Below, piece after piece: positions 4,718-20,000 of a stretch of DNA of 20,000 nucleotides (positions are counted from its first letter, which is position 1; every line of letters begins with the position of its first letter). The position numbers and the translations under genes are program-made. Under the pieces are notes generated by a model. It had not been told where the DNA came from. It searched no databases and saw only the letters and a list, made by a program, of their open reading frames with translations. This DNA is from an uncultured virus (IMG/VR IMGVR_UViG_3300035495_000309) (taxonomy: Duplodnaviria > Heunggongvirae > Uroviricota > Caudoviricetes), in IMG/VR virus record IMGVR_UViG_3300035495_000309, one strand, 5' to 3'.

Positions 4718-5942
4718 TTTGATTTTCCTCCTTAATCTTGTACTGCTCTAAAGCATTATCATAATAACCAGCTGCTAAACGATCTTCGAATTCTTCGAAT
4801 GTTTCAGGAGCTGGGTCATTGTTATTGACATGTCGACGCCCAAATTTAAACATAGATTCTCCAGACTTCTTACGTTCTTTCTTAATCTTGCTGTAAATTC
4901 TTGCATACGCCCCATGTACGAATTTTGGATTAAACGGCTTTGACTCCTCTGTTTGAGTTAATATATAGCCTTTCTCTCTGATATCACCAATCTCTTCTTC
5001 TTGATCTTTCCTGGAAATTCGTTTTCTGATATCGCGGAACGAATACTTCTTTCCACATGTATTACAAATCAGATTATTAAACTCCTTATCATAATAAAGA
5101 ACAGAACTTGGTGAGCATTGGCACTGGAACTGCTTAAACTTTACAGAATAGATGTATGCATAATCCAAGATTACAATGCTTCCATCATCTCGAAATCCCC
5201 AGTTTACATAATTCGTAGAATTAATTCCAACATCACCAATCATGAAATCTGTTGCAATATCTGTAAGAATCTCTCCCATACGAATCGTGTTCTTCCAGAA
5301 ATCATCGATTGTGAAGATTTCTACATATTCAAACACTGCAATGAGTCCGTCTGCATATGTCTCATAACACTTGATCACATATGGTTGTAATGGAATTGAG
5401 TAAATAAACTCTCGCTTATTATCAATCTTTCCATCATCATCACATGCAATCTTTATTACATATCCATCGACCATTCCTGCCCAACGATTCGTTCCACCAC
5501 CTAATGGGGAATATTCTTTTCCCCATTCATCCAACTTCTCTCGATATAGAGAAATCTTCTGATTATTCGTGATGGTAAACGTACGCTGAATCTTCTCGAT
5601 TTCCATTGCCTGCTCTACGGTAAAGATCTCAAGCAACAAGCTCCGATACACTCTCTCCTTTGGATAATACTTCGGAGCCGCTGCTTCGATATCTTCATCG
5701 GTAATTCTTCTGGAAGAGAAAGTATCTTCCTCTTCCTTTTCATCTTTTCCAACCTTAACACCAAATTGATCTTCTGGATTTTCCGGATAAATTCTACTGG
5801 CATTGATTGGATCATGCTCTTTTAAATACTGATCATAATTATACTCCTCGGCTAAAGTTTCATCTTCTTCTAACTGTGCTAATTCCGCAGCTAAAGATTC
5901 TCTTTCAGCCTGAGATAACATCTCTCCAATATTAAATCCCAC
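4710..5942 (-). CDS. Protein-kinase-like fold protein with C-terminal Zn ribbon
   Basis: Gly loop LGGGTNR, beta-3 Lys (YVIKIA), helix-C Glu (DNKRE), catalytic-loop-like DVGINSTNYVN and DFG-equivalent ILDYAY, followed by CQC...CNTC. Confidence 0.7.
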   Translation of the reverse strand: MGFNIGEMLSQAERESLAAELAQLEEDETLAEEYNYDQYLKEHDPINASRIYPENPEDQFGVKVGKDEKEEEDTFSSRRITDEDIEAAAPKYYPKERVYRSLLLEIFTVEQAMEIEKIQRTFTITNNQKISLYREKLDEWGKEYSPLGGGTNRWAGMVDGYVIKIACDDDGKIDNKREFIYSIPLQPYVIKCYETYADGLIAVFEYVEIFTIDDFWKNTIRMGEILTDIATDFMIGDVGINSTNYVNWGFRDDGSIVILDYAYIYSVKFKQFQCQCSPSSVLYYDKEFNNLICNTCGKKYSFRDIRKRISRKDQEEEIGDIREKGYILTQTEESKPFNPKFVHGAYARIYSKIKKERKKSGESMFKFGRRHVNNNDPAPETFEEFEDRLAAGYYDNALEQYKIKEENQNG

Positions 5943-7357
5943 TACTTACCACTCCCTTTCCACATCATGTTCTTCATCTTCTTCTCATAATCTTTCATGG
6001 TTGCTTCATCAGAACCTACCATGTCTAATAAGAGAGAATCGAATGAACTCGCTTTCTTCTTAGCTTCTTTTGATACTTTCTTTTTCTTCTGCTTCTTCAT
6101 TTTCTTGTTGATCTTCTGCTCGGTTTCACTATTGTATGCCTGGATACTTCCATTGATTCCTTCCAGATTTGCTGAATTCTGCTTCGTCTTAAGATCAGAT
6201 AACATCTTCTTCAAAGACTTGATCTGCTTCTTCTGAGCTGCTCTTGTCTTTTCAAGCTTCTTCTGCCTCTCTTTATTGCCGTAAAGATTACGCAGATTGT
6301 ATCCATTCTCTTCAAGCATCTTCTTATATTCCAGCTCTTCCTTCTGTGCTTCTGTAATGGTGTTTTCTCCATACTTCACTAAATTATGCTGCTTTTCCCA
6401 CTGCTCCATCTCGAACATATAACGACTAACAGCTTCTTCATCCATAAGAGAACCATTAAATTCTGGACGAACATCACCAAGCTTTCGATCTCTCTCATCC
6501 TGGAATTCGCGAATCCATTTAAGATCATCTTCCTGAATCTGCCACAGATAGGTCTTCTCTCTCTTAGAATCGTGATCCATTTCACGAATCATCTTCTCAT
6601 ATCCCGGGAAGTGTTTTACAAGTGCTTTTCTTTGCCGCTTCGTTTCTGGTAATACGAAACCACCATCTCCACTTGTATAACTTGCTTTCGTCGGAGCTTT
6701 GTAACTCATAATCCGCTTTGCAAATTCATTATAAGTTGCTTCTCCCATGTACTGCTTGACTTCATCGATATCAACTTCTTTCTCTTCCTTGACTTCCTCT
6801 TCTCTACATTTTGAAGTGGATTGACTCTTAAGAAGTTCATCAATATCTCGATTTGGATTCAAGATATATTCAATGATATAATCCCAGTTTAAGGTCTTCT
6901 TTCCTTTTCCTTGATACTTTGGAATTGTAAGTCCTGCGATCTTAAGCTTCCCCTGAAGAACTTTCAAGATGAATTCATCTGGATCCATAACTCCATTCTT
7001 TTCTGCGGTATCCATGACGATTTCTACGACTAAACGACAGGCTTCAATATACTTGTCCAATCTTCGGATCTTCTTTGTATAATTTCGCCTTAAATGGAAG
7101 AACTTCGAGTACCGCTTACGCTGTGCTTCTCGTTCTTCCCGTGACATGTGATAATCATCCTCAAAATCCTGGACGACTACCTGTGAATAAGTTTCCCTCA
7201 TTTTGGCTAATTCTTCTGGAGGGATATATTCATTTTCAATCGTTCGCTTCTTTACTTTTAGGAATTCACTAGGAACTTCCCCTCTACTGGCCATTTCTTG
7301 TCTAGTCTTCTCTTCTACGTAGTTTTGATTCCTAGACGCGTCTAAAGATATGCCCAT
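5942..7357 (-). CDS. Highly charged, probably coiled-coil hypothetical protein
   Basis: 471-aa K/E-rich ORF with AAAGGAG RBS, first gene after the promoter-like motif at 7390-7405. Confidence 0.8.
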   Translation of the reverse strand: MGISLDASRNQNYVEEKTRQEMASRGEVPSEFLKVKKRTIENEYIPPEELAKMRETYSQVVVQDFEDDYHMSREEREAQRKRYSKFFHLRRNYTKKIRRLDKYIEACRLVVEIVMDTAEKNGVMDPDEFILKVLQGKLKIAGLTIPKYQGKGKKTLNWDYIIEYILNPNRDIDELLKSQSTSKCREEEVKEEKEVDIDEVKQYMGEATYNEFAKRIMSYKAPTKASYTSGDGGFVLPETKRQRKALVKHFPGYEKMIREMDHDSKREKTYLWQIQEDDLKWIREFQDERDRKLGDVRPEFNGSLMDEEAVSRYMFEMEQWEKQHNLVKYGENTITEAQKEELEYKKMLEENGYNLRNLYGNKERQKKLEKTRAAQKKQIKSLKKMLSDLKTKQNSANLEGINGSIQAYNSETEQKINKKMKKQKKKKVSKEAKKKASSFDSLLLDMVGSDEATMKDYEKKMKNMMWKGSGK

Positions 7358-7389
7358 TTTGCAAACTCTCCTTTCTTATACTACTAAAT

Positions 7390-7405
7390 AGATGATATAT
7401 AAATG
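7390..7405 (-). promoter_or_regulatory. Candidate phage promoter motif CATTTATATATCATCT
   Basis: One of 4-5 similar CAYTTATATAHYATYT copies, each upstream of an operon start in the same orientation. Confidence 0.55.
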
Positions 7406-7541
7406 ATTTTCAAGTTGATTTTTACATCTCTATTATTTTCTGGGTTAAATATAGAATTACAAATCATAACATGATTGTAATGGTCATAACAGATCAGGCA
7501 AACCCACAGCTTGTTAAGTTGATCGTTTTACGACTCCGGTG

Positions 7542-7588
7542 AAAGAGGGAACGCAGCGTATTCTTTATTACGCGTGCGTTCCCCTTTT
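7542..7588. terminator. Terminator hairpin downstream of 7596..8288
   Basis: GGGAACGCA-GCGTA / TACGC-G-TGCGTTCCC stem flanked by short A and T runs. Confidence 0.6.
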
Positions 7589-7595
7589 GCTGCCG

Positions 7596-8288
7596 TTATG
7601 CAGCATTTGTAACTTCGGCTTTTACTTCTACCTCGTCTTCCATTTTAACAGGCATCTCGAAACCATCCACATTGATGTATGTGAACTTTTCCTTCAAAAC
7701 ATCGAAAGAGTTCGAATTCAATTCTTTAGTCCTTTCAATTGCCTGCTCAATCTTCCTTCGAATCCCAGCATTTTCTTTCATATCCAGTTCTTCCTGGTAC
7801 ATCTCAAGGAATGTACGGAAATCACCAAATACCATGTAAAGTGGGATTGTAAGTTTATCCGATTTATGGACAACTTCGTGAAGTGTTTTACTAAGAGGAA
7901 TTAACCCTACCTGATTCATATAATGAATTCGGGTTACCTCCTCTGCAAGAAGTAAGGTGTTTATTTCTTCACCTGTACGAATAGCTCTGTCTAATACCAA
8001 CTTTGTGATATCATATAATGTAAGCGGCGCATGATGAACCTCAATACGAACTTTCTTATTATTCGCCTTTGAGACGTTATTAAAGAAAGCACAAGCATCC
8101 ATCCCTACATTGGCACGTAAATATGCAATGTAATCAGAATACTCTAAGGATGCTCGTACTTCAGCTTCAACAGCCTTTACGATATTATTCTTTTCAGTAT
8201 CGGTTTCACAAGCTTCCTGGTATTCAAATTCTCCAGGATTCTCGAATACGACAACTTCAATATTGTCATTTGATTCAGTCGAAACCAT
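7596..8288 (-). CDS. Hypothetical protein, possibly HNH-like fold
   Basis: 230 aa with GGAGGT RBS. The pattern CAFF...IEVHH...GLIPLSKTLHEVVH resembles HNH (EhHH...Nh..LC..CH...H) with degenerate Cys/Asn positions. Confidence 0.55.
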   Translation of the reverse strand: MVSTESNDNIEVVVFENPGEFEYQEACETDTEKNNIVKAVEAEVRASLEYSDYIAYLRANVGMDACAFFNNVSKANNKKVRIEVHHAPLTLYDITKLVLDRAIRTGEEINTLLLAEEVTRIHYMNQVGLIPLSKTLHEVVHKSDKLTIPLYMVFGDFRTFLEMYQEELDMKENAGIRRKIEQAIERTKELNSNSFDVLKEKFTYINVDGFEMPVKMEDEVEVKAEVTNAA

Positions 8289-8327
8289 GCTATCACCTCC
8301 TTTAAAGAAGTGTAGAGACCTGAGTTT

Positions 8328-8963
8328 CTAAACAAAAGCTGTTGCTGCAGCAAGTTCCATTTCTGTTAAGTCTTCTTCTCGTTTGCATTCACAGGTAGAA
8401 ATGAAATCATCTCTATAATATTTCCCGTAAAGATACATGTAAACAGCAAACATATCGTATTGAAGTCCAATATCAGTAACGCCCTCGGCAGTATTTCCAA
8501 GGCCTACATTGAAATGCTCAATCACACGGTTATACCGAAGAGCATATAATGCTTGCCGATATTCTGGTTGGAATATCTCAATTGGAAGAACTCCAGGGAG
8601 CTGACTAAAGATTGCATGTACATCACAAGTGTGATTTAAAAACTCCAGTTCATTTTCTGTATATAATACTTTGATGAATGATGGAATCCGGTATTCATCA
8701 TCACTTGTAATGAGCGTTTCAAAATAGCTCTCACTAAGAAGTCTACTGCGATTCGCAATGAGATATTCATCGACGTTGTCATCATCAATATTGTCAGAAC
8801 GCTCGATAAATAAATCCATATTCCTTTGCTTTCTGAATCTTTTTGCATATTCCTTTTCCTGTGTTAATGCATAAAGAGGATACGCATAACGAAGTTCATC
8901 TTTCGATACCCTTTTTCCCTCTTCCGGCTTTAAATAAAACCTCCAAACTTTCATAAATCTCAC
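8328..8963 (-). CDS. Hypothetical protein, tandem paralogue family member 4
   Basis: KVWRFYL...LYALTQEKEYAKRFRKQRN...IFQPEYRQAL motifs shared with its neighbours. Confidence 0.8.
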   Translation of the reverse strand: MRFMKVWRFYLKPEEGKRVSKDELRYAYPLYALTQEKEYAKRFRKQRNMDLFIERSDNIDDDNVDEYLIANRSRLLSESYFETLITSDDEYRIPSFIKVLYTENELEFLNHTCDVHAIFSQLPGVLPIEIFQPEYRQALYALRYNRVIEHFNVGLGNTAEGVTDIGLQYDMFAVYMYLYGKYYRDDFISTCECKREEDLTEMELAAATAFV

Positions 8964-11269: not shown

Positions 11270-11599
11270 CTAGCCCTCTGATTCACTCTCTTCTTCGGCA
11301 GCACGCTCTTTAATATAATCCATATACTCATCAGCTTTAATCGCCTGATCTGTAACTGAATTGTTACACCAGGTATTGCGGACAAAAATGATTGCTGTCA
11401 TGACATCGGTTATATATTCGTAGGTTTCAGATTCGCTTTTAACGAGTGGATTAAATCCGAAATTAACAGCTACATGATTTAAGATGGCGATAATCATCAT
11501 AATATACGCAGCATATGTCTTCGTATCAATATTTTTCCAATCTATTGCTTTGATGGTTTTCTTCAATTTCTTTATGAAGTTTTTAAATTTCTTTTTCAT
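11270..11599 (-). CDS. Phage holin, SPP1 family
   Basis: Two hydrophobic segments with GFNPL between them, and WCNNSVTDQAIKADEYM matching the SPP1-holin WKNNSFT..A..AD signature. AAGGAGGT RBS before the ATG at 11599. Confidence 0.8.
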   Translation of the reverse strand: MKKKFKNFIKKLKKTIKAIDWKNIDTKTYAAYIMMIIAILNHVAVNFGFNPLVKSESETYEYITDVMTAIIFVRNTWCNNSVTDQAIKADEYMDYIKERAAEEESESEG

Positions 11600-11697
11600 G
11601 GATGTATACCTCCTTTCCATCCTTTTAACTGATTGTGTTTAAATTATTATAGTCATTTTCACAATTACATAGCTTCAAAAAGGAGGAAAGTATCTAT

Positions 11698-11889
11698 ATG
11701 TCAGAGAGAAATTGTTCGCGTTCAGCTGAACAGATCCTTGATAACTTCCCCATTCCAGAATGCCCAGGTTGTAGCTACTTCAAGGAAGAATGTGGCACAT
11801 ATACCTGTAGATGGTTTTCAGAATCAAATGGTGGAACTGAGGGATTTGATGTTACGATACGGGGTGGTTATAAACCATACTATGATTAA
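11698..11889 (+). CDS. Small Cys-rich, probably metal-binding protein
   Basis: 63 aa with AGGAGG RBS and CPGC...C..C residues. Confidence 0.65.
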   Translation: MSERNCSRSAEQILDNFPIPECPGCSYFKEECGTYTCRWFSESNGGTEGFDVTIRGGYKPYYD

Positions 11890-11907
11890 AGAAAAGGAGG
11901 AACTAAA

Positions 11908-13119
11908 ATGGAAGTATTAGAAGTTACATTAGAAGGGATGAATCATTTGATTGAATTCCGTGAATCTGGATCAATGCCGCTTAAAATGAATCGCGTCATG
12001 AATCATGTCGGTGTCCAGATCTTATTAAAGGCATCTCTTCCACAGCTTCTTGTGGCAAAGCAGATGTCTACAAAAATTGCTATGAAAAGACTCACAATGG
12101 CGAAGGCAGAAACAGCTGTTGCAGATTACCCATATCCGGAAGTAGAGGATATTCGTACAAACTTACAGGAATTGATTCCGTGGTATAGTGAGAATCCGGA
12201 TCTTCTGAATCGAATTTCTATTATGGATAAAAATTTCACAAATGATGATCCAGAATCCGAAACAGGGATTAAATCACTTATGGAAACAGTTCCAATTGGA
12301 GCAGTAGTTGGAACTGCTTATTTCTATATCTCAGGATATGATCTCATTGATCTTTGTGATGGAAATATTAGCAAAATCCTTGAAGATTGCATCATAAAAG
12401 ATGACAATCTTAGTGATGATGATTTACAGATCATTGAGATAAATCTTGTAAAGATGTTTATCTCCAAGTTAAACCGGAACTGGATGTATCAGATTGTTGA
12501 GAATACCCAGGTTACAGATACCTGGTTAAAGAAGAATCAATATATCTTAATCCTTACGGATAAAGATTGTGCTGGTTTAAAGAGAATTTATCTGGAAGGA
12601 ACGGGAAGATCAGCGTCTTTTGTAAATGCTGGAGAAGATCTTCCGAAGCAGTTAGAAGATATCGGATCGGGTTACTTTGCATACAAAGGGCAGCACGTAT
12701 ATGCTGAGATCATTTGTTATACACCGATTTTTGTATATTATCTTATTATGCTTGGACTTCCAAATGGAACGATCATTGACTGTGAGGATTATATCAATCT
12801 GATTACACAGTCGCGTGAGTTTTGTAAGATTTTATCTGGTGAAGTTTACGATGAGAACAACTGGGATGTGTATTATACACAGCAAGTTCAGTCAACTCCG
12901 GATGATGAAATGAGTGTTCTTATGAAACATTCATTGATTCCGGGAAATACCAAGATCTCTTATACAATTCGAGCTGAGATAACTAATCTGCTTGTAGTTG
13001 ATGAGATTTCTATGGGACTTTCTCAGTTAGAGGAGTATGACAAATCTGGTGCTTGTGGAACCATCCGAGATCTTATTCGTCATGCACATGAAGCATTTGT
13101 ACATTTTGCTTTTATGTAA
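11908..13119 (+). CDS. Hypothetical phage protein
   Basis: 403-aa ORF with AAGGAGG RBS, followed by a terminator. No motif recognised. Confidence 0.8.
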   Translation: MEVLEVTLEGMNHLIEFRESGSMPLKMNRVMNHVGVQILLKASLPQLLVAKQMSTKIAMKRLTMAKAETAVADYPYPEVEDIRTNLQELIPWYSENPDLLNRISIMDKNFTNDDPESETGIKSLMETVPIGAVVGTAYFYISGYDLIDLCDGNISKILEDCIIKDDNLSDDDLQIIEINLVKMFISKLNRNWMYQIVENTQVTDTWLKKNQYILILTDKDCAGLKRIYLEGTGRSASFVNAGEDLPKQLEDIGSGYFAYKGQHVYAEIICYTPIFVYYLIMLGLPNGTIIDCEDYINLITQSREFCKILSGEVYDENNWDVYYTQQVQSTPDDEMSVLMKHSLIPGNTKISYTIRAEITNLLVVDEISMGLSQLEEYDKSGACGTIRDLIRHAHEAFVHFAFM

Positions 13120-13132
13120 AAAAGACAGTAAA

Positions 13133-13170
13133 AAGAGGGACACGATACGGATTCGTGTCCCTCTTCTTTT
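13133..13170 (+). terminator. Intrinsic terminator
   Basis: 13-bp stem AAGAGGGACACGA/TCGTGTCCCTCTT followed by CTTTT. Confidence 0.8.
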
Positions 13171-13602
13171 ATCGGGTTTCTCGATATTTGATAACGTGAT
13201 AAACTTACAATTGGAGGTGTTTGTTTAACAAGCAGCTATTCTCATTAGGTACCCGAATTTTACCTTGAGAATGTCCATAGCAACTAAATGCCAAAGAATA
13301 CACACAGGAAAAGTGTACCTTTAATCTATTGTATCTAATTCTCATCTCAAATTTTGGGCATCAAAGGGACAGCAGACGCACGCTGTCCCTTATCTAGCCA
13401 GGAGAAGTTTTTTCGTAAGTAGTTATCCATAAAATGAACGTCACAGTAAAAAATCATGTGAGCAAAAAGTAGATCAGGTGTCTGAGTCTGTAACCGTGCT
13501 GATCATTTCCGTTCCCGGTCAGACTCAGACGGTGAACTCGGCAAAATTCACCTTACAACACTGTTTTATTTTTGGTTTAAAAATTTATATAAACTTTAAT
13601 TT

Positions 13603-13618
13603 CATTTATATATTATTT
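13603..13618 (+). promoter_or_regulatory. Candidate phage promoter motif CATTTATATATTATTT upstream of the Cas7-like gene
   Basis: Recurring motif within an AT-rich leader. Confidence 0.55.
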
Positions 13619-13701
13619 AATAGAATAAGGGAATTAAGGAAACCTTATTTAACATCCAAATTCCTAAAAATATTTTAAAAAGACAAAGGAGGAAATGAAT
13701 T

Positions 13702-14553
13702 ATGGCAGGAAGAGTTGGAAGACCAAGAAAGAATCCATTACCGGAGGAAACAAAGCAGATGGAATTACCAATCGGTGAGGAGACAAAGGAAGAGGCACCA
13801 GTAGAAGAGAAGAAAACCAGGAAGACAAAGAAGGCAGCTGAGAAGGCGCCGGCAGCACCTAAAGTAATATTACCGGGACAGATGCTTCCGATGTTTGATA
13901 TCAAGATCAAGATTACATTGATCGAGGATATCCTGGGATCACTTCCGAGTGATGAAGAGATTTATTCTAGCTACATTGCTACCAAGAAGGCAGAGAAGGA
14001 TGCAAAGATTCCGCTTACGGAGGAAGAGAAGCAGGAAGAGATTGCATCGCTGCTGGCGAAGGAGTACAATGAGGCTGAAGAGAACGGGTTGGATGAGAAG
14101 GGTGTTACCATCTTTGCAAAGACGGAGGATGGAAAGCCGTTTTTGTATGACTACGTTATCAAGGGATTCTTTAAGAACGCGTGCAAAGCCATGCGTGAAG
14201 TTGAAGGGTCCAGATCAAAAGGGCTGTCGGCATACAAAACAAAAATCGACAATCTTGTGTTCGTTGAGCCAAGAAAGATTCTCTTCGACATGCCGGAGGG
14301 TAGTGAAATTACAATTTGTCAAAGGCCGTTGCGTGCAAATACACCACAGGGTGAAAGAACAGCGCTTGCAGCTTCAGAATGTATTCCGGCTGGATCAACT
14401 CTGGAATGTACAATCCATTGTTTGAATAAGGAGATGTATGAGAGAGTACCGGAGTGGTTGAACTATGGCCGTTGGAATGGTCTGGGTCAGTGGCATAATT
14501 CAGGACGTGGGAGACTATTATGGCAGGATATTACTACGGTTGACGAAGAGTAA
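13702..14553 (+). CDS. Stand-alone Cas7/RAMP-like RNA-binding protein (Vipr-like)
   Basis: RAMP hallmarks: beta-1 IKIKITLIEDILG, P.h.....IKG.hK helix (GKPFLYDYVIKGFFK), E.hP.G (SECIPAGSTLECTI) and a C-terminal Gly-rich loop GLGQWHNSGRGR. AAGGAGG RBS. No other cas genes in the window. Confidence 0.8.
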   Translation: MAGRVGRPRKNPLPEETKQMELPIGEETKEEAPVEEKKTRKTKKAAEKAPAAPKVILPGQMLPMFDIKIKITLIEDILGSLPSDEEIYSSYIATKKAEKDAKIPLTEEEKQEEIASLLAKEYNEAEENGLDEKGVTIFAKTEDGKPFLYDYVIKGFFKNACKAMREVEGSRSKGLSAYKTKIDNLVFVEPRKILFDMPEGSEITICQRPLRANTPQGERTALAASECIPAGSTLECTIHCLNKEMYERVPEWLNYGRWNGLGQWHNSGRGRLLWQDITTVDEE

Positions 14554-14574
14554 TTTAGACATCTTTTAATAAAA

Positions 14575-14609
14575 AGTGGGTTTGCTATAGCAAACCCACT
14601 ATATTTTTT
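14575..14609 (+). terminator. Perfect 26-bp palindrome plus T-tract (terminator or processing hairpin)
   Basis: AGTGGGTTTGCTA|TAGCAAACCCACT (14575-14600), then ATATTTTTT. Confidence 0.7.
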
Positions 14610-14619
14610 ATCGTTATGG

Positions 14620-15046
14620 AATGGTGAGGCTATTCTAAACAAGGCTGCGTAATGGTATGGTGGTATCAGGTGGAGTCGAGCAATGGAAAGGAATAGTGAT
14701 GTTTCATATTGCAAAGGTATCGTGGTGAGATGTATTATCATGTAATGGTTTTGTGGAGTTGTGGAGATGCGTAGAGTTGTAAAGTAAAGTGATGTAATGG
14801 TGATCCATGGTACAGTTATGTGAAGTAAAGCAAGGGTGTAGTCGAGAAATGTGATGTTCAGGAATGGTACATTAGCGTAGAGTGAGGCATTGGTGAAGTG
14901 CTGACCAGTAAAGTGAAGTATTGGTAAAGTAAGGCTCAGTCCGGCGATGGTAAGGAGATGTAGATTGAGGCACTGTGCTGTTATGGTTGAGTGGAGTGAA
15001 GAGCCGTAATGGTACTGTAGAGTAGGGCAGGGAAACGGTTAAGTAT
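14620..15046 (+). ncRNA. Pentamer-periodic array 1 (putative guide-RNA array, VIPR-like)
   Basis: Parses as (NNxGY)n blocks separated by NNxGGT-type hexamers at 14620, 14651, 14682, 14713, 14744, 14760, 14796, 14832, 14863, 14889, 14920, 14946, 14982, 15008 and 15034. All spacings are 6+5n. The RNA function is inferred. Confidence 0.75.
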
Positions 15047-15109
15047 CTTAAAATTTCTAATATTCGGAGTTACTCTAAATTAAGCATTGCGAAAGGAGGT
15101 GAGAAAGTC

Positions 15110-15388
15110 ATGAGTGTATTTATTAAAGATTGGATAGATCTGAATAATATTCCCAAGGAATCAAAAACGCATATTTTAGAAATTGATATGCGAACCGGTT
15201 GTGCTTGGTTAAGAACAAAAGATCCAAAACCATTAAATCACAAATTATCTATGATGCGACAAATAAAGCATCAAGACGTATATCTATCGACACATACCTT
15301 TTATGGAAAAAGCTACAAGCATTACGAAAAACTTTTACATGCATGTGGATTTGACGTAACACTTGCAAACTGGGACGCTGAAGATTAA
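15110..15388 (+). CDS. Hypothetical 92-aa protein between the two arrays
   Basis: AAAGGAGGTG RBS, normal amino-acid composition, no pentamer periodicity. Confidence 0.75.
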   Translation: MSVFIKDWIDLNNIPKESKTHILEIDMRTGCAWLRTKDPKPLNHKLSMMRQIKHQDVYLSTHTFYGKSYKHYEKLLHACGFDVTLANWDAED

Positions 15389-15392
15389 GCTT

Positions 15393-16146
15393 GATGCTAT
15401 GGTGACGTTGTGTTTTGACTTACCAAGTTATGTAGTGGTACGTTATCGTGCAGCAATGCATAGTTACGGTAACGAAAGGCACAGTCGTGTTATGAATGGG
15501 TGCAGTTAGGTGTACTAAAGTAACGTATAGCAAAGGTATAGTTACGAACTCTTAAGTAGGGTAAAGGCAGGGTCACGAATTGCCATGCTTTGTGTGGATC
15601 GTAATGTATAGGTAAAGTGTATCTAGGTCAAGCGAAGAAAGGGTTGAGACTAGCCCCGCAGCGTAACGGTGTCGTAAAGCGCTGTCTAGTATAGTCAGGG
15701 TTGAGACTAGCCCCGCAGCGTAATGGTATCGTAAGGTGAAATCTGGTAAAGCCTTGGTACAGTCACGTATCATCAAGTATTGTGAAGGATGAGCTAGGAA
15801 TTGCTGAGTAACGTAGTGGTATGGATATGTGCAGAATAGTGAGGTGCCGTTTTGGTATATTAGGGTGCGGTCGCGCCAAGCTAAGTAGTGGTGTGGTATA
15901 GACGAGCAAGGTTCGGTATTGGTAGAGACTGGTGAGGACAAGCGAAGTTTAGTAATGGTACTGTAGAGCATGGTATTGTATTGTAAAGGTATGATAATGT
16001 GGAGACTAGTGTTGTAGTGTGATGGTAGGGATAGGAATGGAAGTGCTAAGTGGTGGTAAAGTGGAGTGCATCTGAGTAATATAATATATGGTAAAGTATG
16101 GTACAGTAAAACTATGTAAAGTGCAGTAAAGGTTAAGTATTTTAGA
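15393..16146 (+). ncRNA. Pentamer-periodic array 2 (putative guide-RNA array, VIPR-like)
   Basis: Same grammar as array 1. Hexamer linkers at 15398, 15434, 15465, 15496, 15532, 15563, 15608, 15639, 15665, 15696, 15722, 15753, 15784, 15815, 15851, 15887, 15918, 15954, 15985, 16021, 16052 and 16128. Spacings are mostly 26, 31 or 36. Confidence 0.75.
15640..15723 (+). repeat. Exact 27-bp direct repeat AGGGTTGAGACTAGCCCCGCAGCGTAA (15640-15666 and 15697-15723)
   Basis: Read directly from the sequence. The offset is 57 nt, equal to one 26-nt plus one 31-nt unit. Confidence 0.9.
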
Positions 16147-16159
16147 TATCAGTATTTGT

Positions 16160-16188
16160 AAGAAGGGATTTTCTATCCCTTCTTTTTT
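16160..16188 (+). terminator. Intrinsic terminator closing array 2
   Basis: AAGAAGGGAT/ATCCCTTCTT stem followed by a T-tract, consistent with + strand transcription of the array. Confidence 0.8.
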
Positions 16189-16217
16189 ATTCCCTAAATT
16201 TGGATTTTTAACATTTT

Positions 16218-16233
16218 CACTTATATACTATTT
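16218..16233 (+). promoter_or_regulatory. Candidate phage promoter motif CACTTATATACTATTT
   Basis: Recurring motif immediately after the terminator and upstream of the next operon. Confidence 0.55.
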
Positions 16234-16399
16234 TGGTGAATGAAAGAGAAGAAAGGTATTGTGAATACATATCTCGTTTTTCTATGATCCGAGAAGCGAC
16301 GTAGGATTGCGAGATGAAAGCAATAAAATGGATTTGATTATCATTCATAAAAACTACGGACAAAAAAAAAGTCCCATGATAAAAAAGGAGGAACTAAAA

Positions 16400-16972
16400 A
16401 TGAGTATTATTAAAACATGGAAAACAGATGGGTGTGATATCACATTATCAGAAGGAACTGTTACGGATAAGCTTTTATCAGGATCAATAAGAGTTGATTG
16501 TTTCTTGTATCCAGAAGCTGCTGTAACTTTCGGTGAATTACCGGAATCGGATGCAGAATTCGTTCTTAAGATTTGTAAGAATCACGGATTCAAGGTAACC
16601 GATAAGAGTCGCTTTGTTAAGGTTTCAGCTATCGCTTCATATAAGGGCGTCGGCATGATGTTTGAAAATGGTTTCTACAGCTCAAATCCGAATATGTCAA
16701 GTAGCTGGATGAAGATCAATTATCTTCCGGCTGATTTGTTTTACGGAAAGGTTGAGAAAGATGTAGTTGACATGACAGTCATTGATTATCTCTTGACAGA
16801 TGAGTTGAGGGAAGCAAAGAAAACATGTGAACTGGATCTCGTTATCAAGCTTCAGTTGAAGCAGAAATCAAACAGATTCCGCAACTTTGGAAAGTTTGAA
16901 AATGTTCTTTCGGATGTTATCAAGTTATCGGAATTGAAGCAGTATCTGGATTATGGAAAGGAAGTAAAATAA
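16400..16972 (+). CDS. Hypothetical protein (start MSIIKTWK)
   Basis: AAGGAGG RBS precedes the ATG at 16400. The track's upstream start lacks an RBS. Confidence 0.75.
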   Translation: MSIIKTWKTDGCDITLSEGTVTDKLLSGSIRVDCFLYPEAAVTFGELPESDAEFVLKICKNHGFKVTDKSRFVKVSAIASYKGVGMMFENGFYSSNPNMSSSWMKINYLPADLFYGKVEKDVVDMTVIDYLLTDELREAKKTCELDLVIKLQLKQKSNRFRNFGKFENVLSDVIKLSELKQYLDYGKEVK

Positions 16973-16974
16973 TC

Positions 16975-17136
16975 ATGAGAAGAGGATTTAGAGATGTTAG
17001 GGAATTAAAGAGAGTTGAAAGAAATCTGCCAGTATTTCCGGATGAGATATTCCCAGATGAAATCGTTGACAAAGATGGGGCAGATGATCTGCCAGATGAA
17101 ATTAGTTTTGATACTTTTAATAAGGAGGAAAAATAA
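16975..17136 (+). CDS. Small acidic protein, 53 aa (MRRGFRDVRELKRVERNLPVFPDEIFPDEIVD...)
   Basis: Manual translation. Fills the gap between neighbouring genes, has an AAGGA RBS and repeated PDEI motifs. Confidence 0.6.
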   Translation: MRRGFRDVRELKRVERNLPVFPDEIFPDEIVDKDGADDLPDEISFDTFNKEEK

Positions 17137-17137
17137 T

Positions 17138-17305
17138 ATGTTTAAAGCAAAAATGGTAGAATCAATAATGGCACATATCGAGGAGCAGGAGAAAAGAGAG
17201 CGGGAACTTGAAGCTATGGAGAATATCGCAGATACACTGGTAACAGGTGTGAGTGTTGTAGCGTTTTCAGTGCTTGCAGCAATTGCAATTAAATTCGATA
17301 TTTAA
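17138..17305 (+). CDS. Small membrane-anchored protein (55 aa, start MFKAKMV)
   Basis: AAGGAGG RBS and a C-terminal hydrophobic helix. Confidence 0.7.
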   Translation: MFKAKMVESIMAHIEEQEKRERELEAMENIADTLVTGVSVVAFSVLAAIAIKFDI

Positions 17306-17330
17306 TAAAAAAGTTGGGAGGTGAAGTAGC

Positions 17331-17636
17331 ATGAGACTGTATTTAAAGACTGATAAGAAGACTCCATTTCGGAGATACTTCATGTATGCTGACACAAAGG
17401 AACTTCGTGCATCGAGATTCTTCTATGAGAGAGGAATTCATGTACGATTCATAAAGCAGTACAAAAATGAGGCAGAGCCGTACAGGATTGTAGTGTGCTC
17501 TGTCTCGACAAAAGATACCGGGAAGTTCGCTGATGCAATCCAGGAGCTTTCCAGAACAATGAACCTCATCGGATATAACGACTACGATGAATGGTGTGAT
17601 AAGACGTTTGATAAGATTAAGGAGGTAGCGTCATGA
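17331..17636 (+). CDS. Hypothetical protein
   Basis: 101 aa with GGAGGTG RBS. Confidence 0.75.
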   Translation: MRLYLKTDKKTPFRRYFMYADTKELRASRFFYERGIHVRFIKQYKNEAEPYRIVVCSVSTKDTGKFADAIQELSRTMNLIGYNDYDEWCDKTFDKIKEVAS

Positions 17637-17828: not shown

Positions 17829-17874
17829 AAAAGAAGAGAGCAAGGGTGAAAATCCAAGCTCTCTTCTTTTTTTT
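17829..17874. terminator. Bidirectional terminator between convergent operons
   Basis: AAAAGAAGAGAGC/GCTCTCTTCTTTT stem with A and T tracts. Confidence 0.75.
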
Positions 17875-18466
17875 ATTTTTTCCTTGTATATTCCTCAATA
17901 ATGAAGTTCGGTCCTTCACCTTCAAGGAATGCATGTCTGCTTTGACTTATTCGTTTAAAACCATAATAGTCAATTGCATCTAGTGGAAACTTCACACATT
18001 TCTCAATATCAACACCAAGTCTTGCTGCGTCTGTTTGCACGCGAGTTAATGTGATACGATCCGTAAATGGGAAGAATTCGTTGTAAATCTTCTCACCACC
18101 AATAATACAAATGACATGGTTAAATTGATGAAGATTCTGATATGCCAGTTCAATCGCATCCATTGGATCTTTCGCGATCAAATATCCATCAGATGGTTCC
18201 AAAGTTGTAGATATCACAATATTGGTTCTCTCAGGCAAGGGTTTTCCAATGGAAAGAAAAGTATTCTTGCCCATTATCACCGGTCTTCCAGTTGTCATCT
18301 GTTTGAAATTCTTCAGATCCTCTGGAAGATGCCACGGAATTTTATTATCAATTCCAATAATTCCATCTTCTGATACTGCAGCAATCATGTTGATTGTAAC
18401 ACGACTGCGAATCTCCTGTAATGTGATGCGTTCGTTTATCGTTGTTGCCTTAATTGAATCGTCCAT
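17873..18466 (-). CDS. folA: Dihydrofolate reductase
   Basis: MIAAVSEDGIIG..NKIPWHLPEDLKNFKQMTTG.PVIMGKNTF.SIGKPLPERTNIV and IIGGEKIY motifs. Confidence 0.95.
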   Translation of the reverse strand: MDDSIKATTINERITLQEIRSRVTINMIAAVSEDGIIGIDNKIPWHLPEDLKNFKQMTTGRPVIMGKNTFLSIGKPLPERTNIVISTTLEPSDGYLIAKDPMDAIELAYQNLHQFNHVICIIGGEKIYNEFFPFTDRITLTRVQTDAARLGVDIEKCVKFPLDAIDYYGFKRISQSRHAFLEGEGPNFIIEEYTRKK

Positions 18467-18467
18467 C

Positions 18468-19448
18468 TTAAACTACTACCTCCCCGAAGTCAATATTTCC
18501 CATATGCTCGTATCCTTCAATATGACAGTTGTTAAAGTCATACTTAAAGAAACCGGTCTCTTCAGTGTCAAATACAAACTTCGGTTTTGATTCAATTGCA
18601 AGAATTCCTTTCTCAAGCAATAAATCCTTTGCAATCTTTTCATTCGGATAATCTTCAATATGAATACAATCAATGAGTCTTTGAGCACCTTCAAAGTTGT
18701 CGTCTTCCAGATACTCTAAGATCTCATAATACTTAAGCTGTAATCCAACGCCTTCCATCTGTCTGTCATAGATGTGTGCGTCTGCAATTACATGCGTAAG
18801 ATTTCCAGGCTTTACACCAAGATCTCTTGCAAACTGTAAACAGAGTATTGCATATTGAGTGGTATTAAACGGAACTCCAATAGGGAAGTCTCCACTTCTT
18901 TGATCAACAAGGACGTTTAATCTTCCACCATCTAAGTTCCAGCTTGTTGTGTGTACGCAAGGGATAAATCCCATTCTTGCAAGTTCTTGAGGATTCCAGA
19001 TAGTAGCAACTGCATGTCTACCATTTGGATTCTCACGCAGATATTCCAGAATGTATTCCGCCTGATTCTGATAAGAACGGAATGCTTCTTTTGACTTCTT
19101 TGGAAAGTCCAAATACGTGTTAACCGGGATTGCAATCTGTGCTCCATAAGCAGTTCCAATAGAACCATTCTCATCAGCCCATGCATCCCAGATGTGAGGT
19201 TTTAAGTCATGGATATTGTTGGATTGCTGTTTCCAGATCCATTCAATTTCCTGTAATGCACTTTTTCCTCTTACATTCTTTGACTTGAGGATTGGAAATT
19301 CTTCTTCCAAATCCACTGAGATTACCTGGTTAGGCAATCTTTTTGTTGATACGCCAGTACGCTCATTGACACCATCAGCATAACCATTCTGATAGATGTT
19401 TTTCAAAATCTTGATGTACTGCCTTTCGTAATTTGTTAATTTTCCCAT
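18468..19448 (-). CDS. thyA: Thymidylate synthase (ThyA type)
   Basis: RTG, EIEW, IWDAWADENG, YG, catalytic PC (IPCVH), QRSGD...GVPFN and DAHIY motifs. Confidence 0.95.
   Translation of the reverse strand: MGKLTNYERQYIKILKNIYQNGYADGVNERTGVSTKRLPNQVISVDLEEEFPILKSKNVRGKSALQEIEWIWKQQSNNIHDLKPHIWDAWADENGSIGTAYGAQIAIPVNTYLDFPKKSKEAFRSYQNQAEYILEYLRENPNGRHAVATIWNPQELARMGFIPCVHTTSWNLDGGRLNVLVDQRSGDFPIGVPFNTTQYAILCLQFARDLGVKPGNLTHVIADAHIYDRQMEGVGLQLKYYEILEYLEDDNFEGAQRLIDCIHIEDYPNEKIAKDLLLEKGILAIESKPKFVFDTEETGFFKYDFNNCHIEGYEHMGNIDFGEVVV

Positions 19449-19774: not shown

Positions 19775-20000
<226 letters not shown>

Follow-up and report, generated by a model that had tools for sequence, protein, structure and literature searches.

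A jumbo phage locus that pairs a Cas7-like RAMP gene with two staggered pentanucleotide arrays, probably a VIPR system

A RAMP gene beside two pentanucleotide arrays

The locus described here lies in a stretch of 20,000 nucleotides (nt) of DNA from an uncultured virus of the Caudoviricetes (IMG/VR record IMGVR_UViG_3300035495_000309), referred to below as the window, and consists of a gene for a RAMP protein followed on the same strand by two long arrays of degenerate five-nucleotide repeats. The window matches a section of a 257,734-bp IMG/VR contig at 100% identity and belongs to a jumbo phage. We put at roughly 85% the probability that the region is a locus of VIPR (Viral Interference Programmable Repeat), an RNA-guided DNA-binding system related to CRISPR (bioRxiv 10.64898/2026.04.26.720920, 10.64898/2026.04.26.720927), made up of a Vipr-like RAMP and two arrays of its RNAs, the vrRNAs. 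The features that carry the argument are the following.

13702-14553, + strand: vipr-like gene, 283 residues, a single-RRM RAMP domain with an N-terminal tail
13702-13890, + strand: N-terminal tail (residues 1-63), rich in lysine and glutamate, with an AT-hook-like GRPRK motif
13891-14550, + strand: RAMP domain (residues 64-283), a single RRM, including a thumb hairpin and a glycine-rich loop, GLGQWHNSGRG
14620-15040, + strand: candidate vrRNA array 1, with 14 complete units, each of 16-36 nt, between 15 boundaries; base content 34% G and 9% C
15390-16146, + strand: candidate vrRNA array 2, with 20 complete units, each of 26-76 nt, between 21 boundaries (15398-16128); base content 31% G and 12% C
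15640-15723, + strand: internal duplication in array 2, an exact 27-nt stretch at 15640 and again at 15697, judged recent

The two copies in array 2 are 57 nt apart, a distance equal to one 26-nt unit plus one 31-nt unit.

A two-level repeat format

Both arrays are made up of pentamers of the form NNNGY (N, any base; Y, pyrimidine), into which one additional base is typically placed after 5-7 pentamers, giving units of 26, 31 or 36 nt. The autocorrelation of base identity has a maximum at lag 5 (0.43 in array 1 and 0.41 in array 2), and maxima return at lags 26, 31 and 36, which are of the form 5n+1, the value at lag 31 being 0.51 and 0.40, respectively. Nearby coding controls, namely the small open reading frame (ORF) between the arrays and two flanking genes, give 0.23-0.33 at all lags. 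When the 70,944-base assembly was scanned in segments of 200 nt, runs of segments above the lag-5 threshold were confined to the two arrays, with two isolated segments elsewhere barely exceeding it.

The units were delimited by a Viterbi parse that has five states for the phase and allows a single optional extra base, its parameters being fitted to each array separately by expectation maximization. This parser makes only a step of +1 cheap, and the share of lengths of the form 6+5n is therefore partly built in; the autocorrelation peaks at 26, 31 and 36 are model-free and unaffected by that preference. The parsed lengths are 31, 31, 31, 31, 16, 36, 36, 26, 31, 31, 26, 36, 26 and 26 in array 1 and 36, 31, 31, 36, 31, 76, 26, 31, 26, 31, 31, 31, 36, 36, 31, 36, 31, 36, 31 and 76 in array 2. 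A previous reading of the same DNA, made by a model from the letters alone and referred to here as the sequence-only reading, had listed unit lengths that differ from this parse at just two points: a boundary in array 1 was set 5 nt away (31, 26, 31 in place of 26, 31, 31), and a 45 followed by a 31 in array 2 is parsed as a single 76, the 45 having come from an in-phase GGT pentamer without an extra base.

The two-level format proposed in that reading is real. The parse scores of 84.7 for array 1 and 155.7 for array 2 were reached by none of 100 dinucleotide-preserving shuffles of either array (6.8 ± 3.8 with a maximum of 20.2, and 8.7 ± 4.8 with a maximum of 26.8, respectively), which disposes of the suggestion that shuffled sequence might parse equally well. 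The expected profile of low information at the variable positions and high information at G and Y was also recovered: measured in bits against array composition, positions 1-5 and the extra base carry 0.13, 0.09, 0.01, 0.92, 0.87 and 0.53 in array 1 and 0.14, 0.07, 0.04, 1.00, 0.76 and 0.30 in array 2. In both arrays together, position 4 is G in 199 of 222 pentamers, and position 5 is a pyrimidine in 189 (T in 149) and G in none, while the internal variable positions have an entropy of 1.85-1.90 bits.

Unit boundaries are the most constrained part of the format. All 36 contain GG, 31 contain GGT, 32 are preceded by G[CT] and 24 have A as the extra base. The consensus is G-Y-A-A-T-G-G-T-A; its three Gs are present in 36/36, compared with 88% for the internal G. 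The sequence-only reading had described the boundary as an NNNGGT hexamer usually preceded by GY to give GYAATGGT-like words. The consensus has this form, but for GYAATGGT "usually" is too strong, since the exact AATGGT is found at only 7 of the 36 boundaries. Six pentamers make up 16 of the 34 complete units, seven make up 9, five make up 6, fifteen make up 2 and three make up 1. The first position is G in all 34 unit-first pentamers as opposed to about 23% of the 188 internal ones. At the GG junction the first G continues the preceding 5-nt lattice and the second opens the next.

A unit can thus be rewritten as G(YNNNG)n, with G at both ends, a semi-conserved last repeat (Y-A-A-T-G) and no gap between one unit and the next. 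This form by itself yields lengths of 5n+1 and a constant GG junction, and it resolves the previously described hexamer into the end of one unit (AATG) and the start of the next (GT).

No Rfam family reached its gathering score in the window (there were five sub-threshold chance matches), and neither blastn nor megablast found a match to the arrays or to the whole window among 50,697 phage records. Two minus-strand ORFs, at 15573-15971 (132 residues) and 14487-14741 (84 residues), lie antisense to the arrays and might be annotated automatically as genes. They have no Pfam or PADLOC match, and such ORFs are expected by chance because the sequence is C-poor.

The vipr-like protein

No Pfam, PHROG or NCBIfam family matches the ORF at 13702-14553, for which more than 650 unannotated homologs of about 200 residues were found; residues 64-283 align with this family, and the 63-residue tail lies outside it. 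According to its AlphaFold2 model (built from 41 sequences; pLDDT, the predicted local distance difference test, 82; pTM, the predicted template modeling score, 0.78), the ORF encodes a stand-alone Cas7-like RAMP. With this model Foldseek returned 145 matches at E≤1e-3, the top-ranked ones being a type VII CRISPR Cas7 (E 6e-8) and a type III-A Csm3. The family profile, compared with PDB sequences, also found type VII Cas7, at E 0.0044, the match falling on the GLGQWHNSGRG loop. The loop has the form GhGxWxxxGxG, and G199, W201, G205 and G207 are invariant. A thumb-like hairpin is predicted at residues 141-165, with R145, R148 and R156 invariant. PADLOC, run on nine ORFs, gave only sub-threshold hits, Cas7_IIId for the vipr-like gene (E 0.026) and SduA for the ORF at 11633-11920 (E 0.024).

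The N-terminal tail of the window protein has counterparts. Of the 120 closest homologs, 12 have an AT-hook-like tail, C-terminal in 10 and N-terminal in 2 (the window protein and one other); such tails are present on 10 of the 13 homologs longer than 230 residues and on none of 120 SUSP1-clade proteins. AT-hooks bind the minor groove of DNA. The tails accordingly fit a DNA-directed function, and they may add non-specific DNA affinity. The RGR[KP] tail carriers besides the window protein are P0007, P0011, P0018, P0031, P0040, P0062, P0064, P0067, P0068, P0071 and P0117.

Linkage of gene and array across relatives

Relatives of the gene were collected in two sets. A family-alignment scan of IMG/VR viral contigs gave at least 480, from which 80 loci were kept, and species genomes gave 91, from which 80 loci were likewise kept. 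The latter are mostly metagenome-assembled genomes (MAGs) of gut Clostridia (Lachnospiraceae, Oscillospiraceae, Ruminococcus, Faecalibacterium and Subdoligranulum), with a few contigs binned to other phyla (Bacteroidota, Actinomycetota and one archaeon); isolate genomes with relatives belong to Lachnospiraceae, Megasphaera and Porcincola.

An array lies within 200 nt of the gene in 78 of the 79 other viral loci (47 upstream, 27 downstream, 4 on both sides) and in 76 of the 80 genome loci (62 downstream, 14 upstream), so that gene and adjacent array occur together in 154/159 loci. Two of the five exceptions have more distant arrays and in three none was detected, one of which has just 34 nt after the gene. 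On the strand of the gene, G exceeds C in every adjacent array (82/82 viral and 76/76 genome, 158/158 in all). The vipr-like gene is the sole ORF cluster present in 160/160 loci; the next largest, an XRE-type helix-turn-helix (HTH) protein, is found in 75 of the 160 at variable distance. Four human-faecal phage records each carry a homolog 45-49% identical to the window protein beside a G-rich, 5-nt-periodic array, and within 6 kb on either side they have only the vipr-like gene in common with the window.

The arrays of the window total about 1,180 nt, against a family median of about 480 nt. Another jumbo phage, L008 (a 242,978-bp contig whose protein is 48% identical), has an array of at least 3.8 kb after the gene (4741-8600), reaching the end of the sequence taken for that locus.

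The grammar of the window recurs in the family. Among 1,118 units in 74 distinct arrays (43,175 nt), 250 are 31 nt long, 246 are 26, 209 are 36, 76 are 41 and 74 are 21, and their junctions follow the consensus G-C-A-A-N-G-G-[A/C]-A. Behind the periodic G, the family has a base best described as "not G" (C 0.44, A 0.37), which in the window is mostly T.

Close relatives allow the turnover of units to be followed. In six phages (L023, L026, L027, L028, L038 and L041) whose vipr genes are at least 95% identical, the promoter-proximal (distal) part of the upstream array is nearly the same, and the gene-proximal end differs by whole units, amounting to 0-200 nt (alignment A3, columns ~400-600). 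The gain and loss of whole units indicates that units behave as modules. In the shared part, variable columns number 5/42, 11/42 and 6/42 at positions 1-3 (22/126 in total), 2/42 at the G and 3/42 at position 5 (5/84 in total), and 0/6 at the extra base. The three variable positions thus change more often than the G and its following base, a small sample in which the direction is as expected. The polarity of this unit turnover is reminiscent of CRISPR arrays, but adaptation genes are absent.

Relation to published VIPR systems

Structure searches with Cas5, Cas6 and Cas7 queries led to Vipr, a RAMP of about 20 kDa that phages encode, and characterised vrRNAs contain 9-16 YNNGG repeats (bioRxiv 10.64898/2026.04.26.720920). 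According to the VIPR preprints, the protein forms a right-handed filament with one protomer per repeat, at six protomers per turn without DNA and five with it; a thumb and a G-loop sequester GGY, the NN bases pair with double-stranded DNA, and every third target base is skipped. The system silences competing phages and satellites, and programmable DNA silencing was shown experimentally. Seven types are named, and the set comprises 667 systems (bioRxiv 10.64898/2026.04.26.720920, PMC13142463). Of most relevance here, the methods of that preprint give the alternative repeats "NNNGG, YNNNG, and NNNNG", and it names "staggered arrays with overlapping vrRNAs", in which the end of one vrRNA is the start of the next. 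In the legend of its fig. S18, staggered arrays are said to contain "individual processed vrRNAs", with a 1-nt overlap. According to its authors, small-RNA sequencing confirmed ribozyme-interspersed arrays and single-vrRNA systems, not staggered arrays (bioRxiv 10.64898/2026.04.26.720920).

The window shares several features with the staggered systems. Both have a small RAMP of a phage or provirus beside long intergenic pentanucleotide arrays and no cas genes, a conserved G(G)Y with the other positions hypervariable, and units that follow one another without spacer, tail or ribozyme. All 36 junctions of the window are GG, with no spacer and an offset of one nucleotide, and its repeat fits the alternative "YNNNG". 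The legend describes an overlap of 1 nt, whereas the units of the window abut, meet in GG and close with a repeat that is semi-conserved. Overall, we place the locus among VIPR systems of the staggered, YNNNG kind and not in type II.

Type II is represented by Escherichia phage SUSP1 (KT454805.2), whose system has cryo-EM structures (bioRxiv 10.64898/2026.04.26.720927) and in which we located vipr at 28474-29061 on the minus strand, with H17, D177, W178 and R179 at their published numbers and flanking arrays as described. The SUSP1 locus resembles that of the window in its pentamer period, its single gene with flanking arrays and its location in a phage. In the hhalign alignment, which is weak, the two proteins have the same order of elements: first strand, helical bundle, helix-1, thumb, G-loop and last strand. 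The G-loops align, and W178, which stacks on the second G in SUSP1, is kept in the window family; H17 and D177, which read the first G, align with S/T and Q, and R179 with H. The replacement of H17 and D177 in this weak alignment would fit the loss of the first G from internal repeats. Type II was nevertheless rejected as the class of the window locus. In SUSP1 a vrRNA measures about 100 nt, and its 9-16 YNNGG repeats are followed by an invariant 3' tail that contains a pseudoknot. Units of the window abut and have no structured tail, 31/34 have 5-7 repeats, and no Rfam family was found in the window at gathering score. SUSP1 also has a vap1 neighbour, and nothing like vap1 is present at the window locus. 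A holin and a pair of thymidylate synthase and dihydrofolate reductase genes lie within a few kilobases of VIPR both in the window (11270-11620, 17873-19448) and in SUSP1 (L087:23136-24993), which may be coincidence.

The protein also invites comparison with class 1 CRISPR, since Cas7 and Csm3 of types III-A and VII (PDB 6xn3, 6ifn, 8z4j) share its RRM core, thumb and glycine-rich loop. The likeness would extend to the backbone: one protomer per fixed step of RNA, breaks in pairing imposed by the thumb, and a guide length that changes in steps of one protomer. The window differs in a step of 5 nt rather than 6, in a periodic base that is sequence-specific and in having a single protein. Class 1 CRISPR-Cas was therefore rejected, there being no repeat-spacer array and no other Cas protein. 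Tandem Repeats Finder found no CRISPR-like repeat in the window, Pfam no Cas family among 24 window ORFs, and Cas5, Cas6, Cas10, Cas11 and adaptation genes were all absent from it.

A distant functional parallel is TRAP on the trp leader of Bacillus subtilis, where an oligomer reads a short motif at a period of about 5 nt with non-conserved spacers between. TRAP differs in being a fixed ring with 11 sites, of another fold and with a regulatory rather than a guide role, the variable bases being uninformative.

VIPR has been presented as a new way of recognising DNA by RNA guides, from which CRISPR effectors may have descended, and so far it is characterised in only two Proteobacterial systems. 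The window locus would bring its logic into a jumbo phage. Related loci, present in no fewer than 480 viral contigs and in MAGs that come mainly from gut Clostridia, have an array architecture that the VIPR authors list without experimental verification. The class of element was already published in 2026, and the interest of the present example lies in its staggered architecture, junction rule, relaxed consensus and AT-hook tails.

Proposed mode of action

By analogy with the characterised systems, we infer transcription, filament assembly, processing at GG, DNA targeting and a biological role for the window locus along the following lines. The arrays would be read from the + strand as vrRNAs of the Vipr-like protein, one protomer of which would bind each pentamer, as in the systems of SUSP1 and Pseudomonas fulva. 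The thumb and glycine-rich loop would sequester the conserved G and the pyrimidine that follows it, leaving the variable bases of consecutive pentamers displayed along a helical filament, where they would pair, in a gapped code, with double-stranded DNA of a competing phage or mobile element and bring about its silencing. At the GG junction, with its semi-conserved end repeat, one filament would stop and the next would start, either by cleavage or by the break in register alone. The window would then hold about 34 short guides, each forming about one helical turn of filament, given the six protomers per turn of the published binary complex. That the three boundary Gs are present in 36/36, compared with 88% for the internal G, fits a specific recognition or cleavage site.

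These ideas had largely been anticipated. The sequence-only reading took the pentamer to be the footprint of a filament protein and the variable bases to carry the information, proposals that agree with the preprints, one Vipr protomer being assigned to each pentamer, the G(G)Y sequestered and the variable bases specifying the target. Its further proposal, that the +1 hexamer marks the boundary between units that act as separate guides, is supported in kind by the staggered arrays named there. If the VIPR assignment holds, the grammar was enough for a reader without tools to arrive at a mechanism of the right kind.

We also considered that the mainly Clostridia-associated clade might use an uncharacterised variant of the VIPR code and architecture, a suggestion that we regard as tentative and on present evidence somewhat doubtful. 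Only one G and the base after it would be sequestered, given that H17 and D177, the readers of the first G in SUSP1, have other residues in their place. That would leave three bases free in each repeat, and pairing may then follow a rule other than "two paired, one skipped". The guides would be one helical turn long (5-7 protomers), and the invariant G...Y-A-A-N-G|G junction would set filament length without a ribozyme, tail or dedicated nuclease. The AT-hook tails would supply the DNA affinity that short guides lack. The jumbo phage would thus carry a library of about 34 guides and L008, by extrapolation, about 120. The G(YNNNG)n form, the invariant GG, the semi-conserved last repeat, the 5-7 repeats and the one-ended turnover together provide predictions for how filament length and guide ends might be defined without a processing enzyme.

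Points that weigh against a VIPR assignment

Several observations count against this assignment. Foremost is the sequence of the protein, whose homology to characterised Vipr is marginal, so that the link to VIPR rests on fold, architecture and RNA context. Aligned by hhalign with 37 SUSP1-clade homologs, the family profile gave 182 co-linear columns at E 0.0034 with a probability of only 9.6%; with the single SUSP1 sequence, the values were E 0.041 and 1.3%. A plain hidden Markov model of the family failed to single out the SUSP1 protein among the ORFs of that phage (E 1.8). The arrays also depart from the characterised ones. The canonical YNNGG is lacking from the internal repeats, the internal first G standing at about 23% compared with 31-34% for G overall; the 5-7 repeats of most units fall short of 9-16; and the window arrays contain no conserved 3' tail or pseudoknot of type II. 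No accessory (vap) gene, a usual though not universal neighbour of vipr, is common to the 160 loci or shared with the window. Co-transcription of gene and array 1 is not assured, as a terminator-like hairpin (described below) stands between them, and no convincing separate promoter for the array was identified in the window.

The predicted structure of the RNA likewise offers no help. Array 1 RNA is predicted to be slightly more structured than its shuffles (z -2.0, with 4/100 shuffles as stable), and the idea that array RNA is kept unstructured by selection was dropped on that account.

Target searches belong to the same side of the balance. Exact gapped words from 1,221-2,953 guide windows were compared with 1.46 Mb of local phage DNA, a small database, under seven settings of pairing position and guide length with two to four skip lengths each. 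Exact matches by the rule of two paired and one skipped were not in excess in this DNA; with six pentamers and one skip, the match fraction was 0.1045 compared with 0.0995 ± 0.0059 for shuffled guides. Clear excesses arose only at a 5-nt period and were matches to other arrays. One 18-base gapped pattern searched against IMG/VR gave 4 matches whose extensions agreed at 3-4 of 12 positions, the level of chance. With only 5-7 repeats per guide, scans for exact patterns are swamped by chance matches. Under a rule of three paired and none skipped, guides of four pentamers matched local phage DNA at 0.099, compared with 0.085 ± 0.004 when pentamer order was shuffled; at five pentamers the values were 0.0038 and 0.0025 ± 0.0010, which does not clearly uphold the difference, and it may be an effect of composition.

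Alternative explanations

The alternative that survives best, although we consider it improbable, retains the same VIPR-type ribonucleoprotein and supposes that each array is one long, continuously coated RNA in which the extra base is a hinge or a dislocation of register. Adjacent units might in that case read DNA sites that are neighbours or that cooperate. Between units there is no ribozyme, conserved hairpin or tail, and in the 160 loci no nuclease gene is conserved beside the module. The length of a vrRNA is moreover reported to set that of the filament, with some natural vrRNAs reaching 30 repeats (bioRxiv 10.64898/2026.04.26.720927), and by our arithmetic the 10-14 specifying bases of a single unit, at two per repeat, would find many chance sites in a bacterial genome. 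Set against this are the "individual processed vrRNAs" of the fig. S18 legend in the companion preprint (bioRxiv 10.64898/2026.04.26.720920), the strict conservation of the boundary, which exceeds that of any other part of the array, and the gain and loss of whole units between close relatives, all of which favour separate guides.

Far less probable is a decoy, in which a Cas7 look-alike and its repetitive RNA would titrate or poison a type III or type I CRISPR system, or another RNA-binding defence, without guiding anything to DNA. Phage mimics of defence components exist, the nearest matches among solved structures are to Csm3 and Cas7 in effector complexes of types III and VII, and the target searches gave no matches above chance. 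A decoy would have no need, however, of hypervariable positions or of unit turnover between close relatives, and its period of 5 nt is not the 6 nt of the Cas7-crRNA (CRISPR RNA) backbone given in the VIPR preprint. Related systems silence DNA targets programmably in experiments, and many carriers are MAG contigs (some of them probably prophages) or viral contigs of about 40 kb, with repressor-like HTH and recombination genes nearby.

That the arrays encode no RNA element at all, and are a decaying microsatellite, a DNA site (an origin, a centromere or curved DNA) or a minus-strand coding region, is the least credible of the alternatives: a 5-bp period with +1 per ~31 bp does by our arithmetic equal three helical turns of 10.3 bp and would keep one face of the DNA, and ORFs of 132 and 84 residues do overlap the arrays, but the strand asymmetry tracks that of the RAMP gene in 158/158 adjacent arrays, the partner protein has an RNA-binding fold, a 31-nt unit breaks the reading frame of ORFs that are in any case expected in C-poor sequence and have no Pfam or PADLOC match, and decay would not have kept the phase in 154/159 loci of differing base composition.

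Surroundings in the phage genome

The remaining features of the locus are listed below.

14575-14600, + strand: hairpin rich in G+C, with a T run after it, separating the gene from array 1 (consensus scan, 11 pairs, 6 of them G-C)
15110-15388, + strand: small ORF of 92 residues between the arrays, with a strong ribosome-binding site
16160-16184, + strand: terminator-like hairpin and T run that closes array 2 (consensus scan, 10 pairs)

The hairpin at 14575-14600 fits the terminator pattern on both strands. Judged by its sequence, it might act as an attenuating terminator, or it might form a structure at the 5' end of the array transcript. The 92-residue ORF has no match in Pfam, PHROG, NCBIfam or PADLOC and no usable Atlas lead, and it was not found beside the vipr-like gene in the other loci; it is possibly an accessory gene or an unrelated insert. 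The ORF at 16400-16972 (190 residues) likewise has no family match or usable Atlas lead.

The genes from 11633 to 17636 are all on the + strand. Most ORFs of the window have no family, the recognisable genes being those for an SPP1-type holin, dihydrofolate reductase and thymidylate synthase (PHROGs). Upstream of the vipr-like gene, 580 nt (13120-13700) are free of ORFs and contain a terminator-like hairpin near 13140-13165 and further inverted repeats; this segment has no 5-nt periodicity, and its end is very A+T-rich. The assembly contig stops at position 19887 of the window. The last 113 bases (19888-20000) are A-rich and of low complexity, with A runs and periods of 10 and 27 according to Tandem Repeats Finder, and they match the longer IMG/VR contig at 99.9%.

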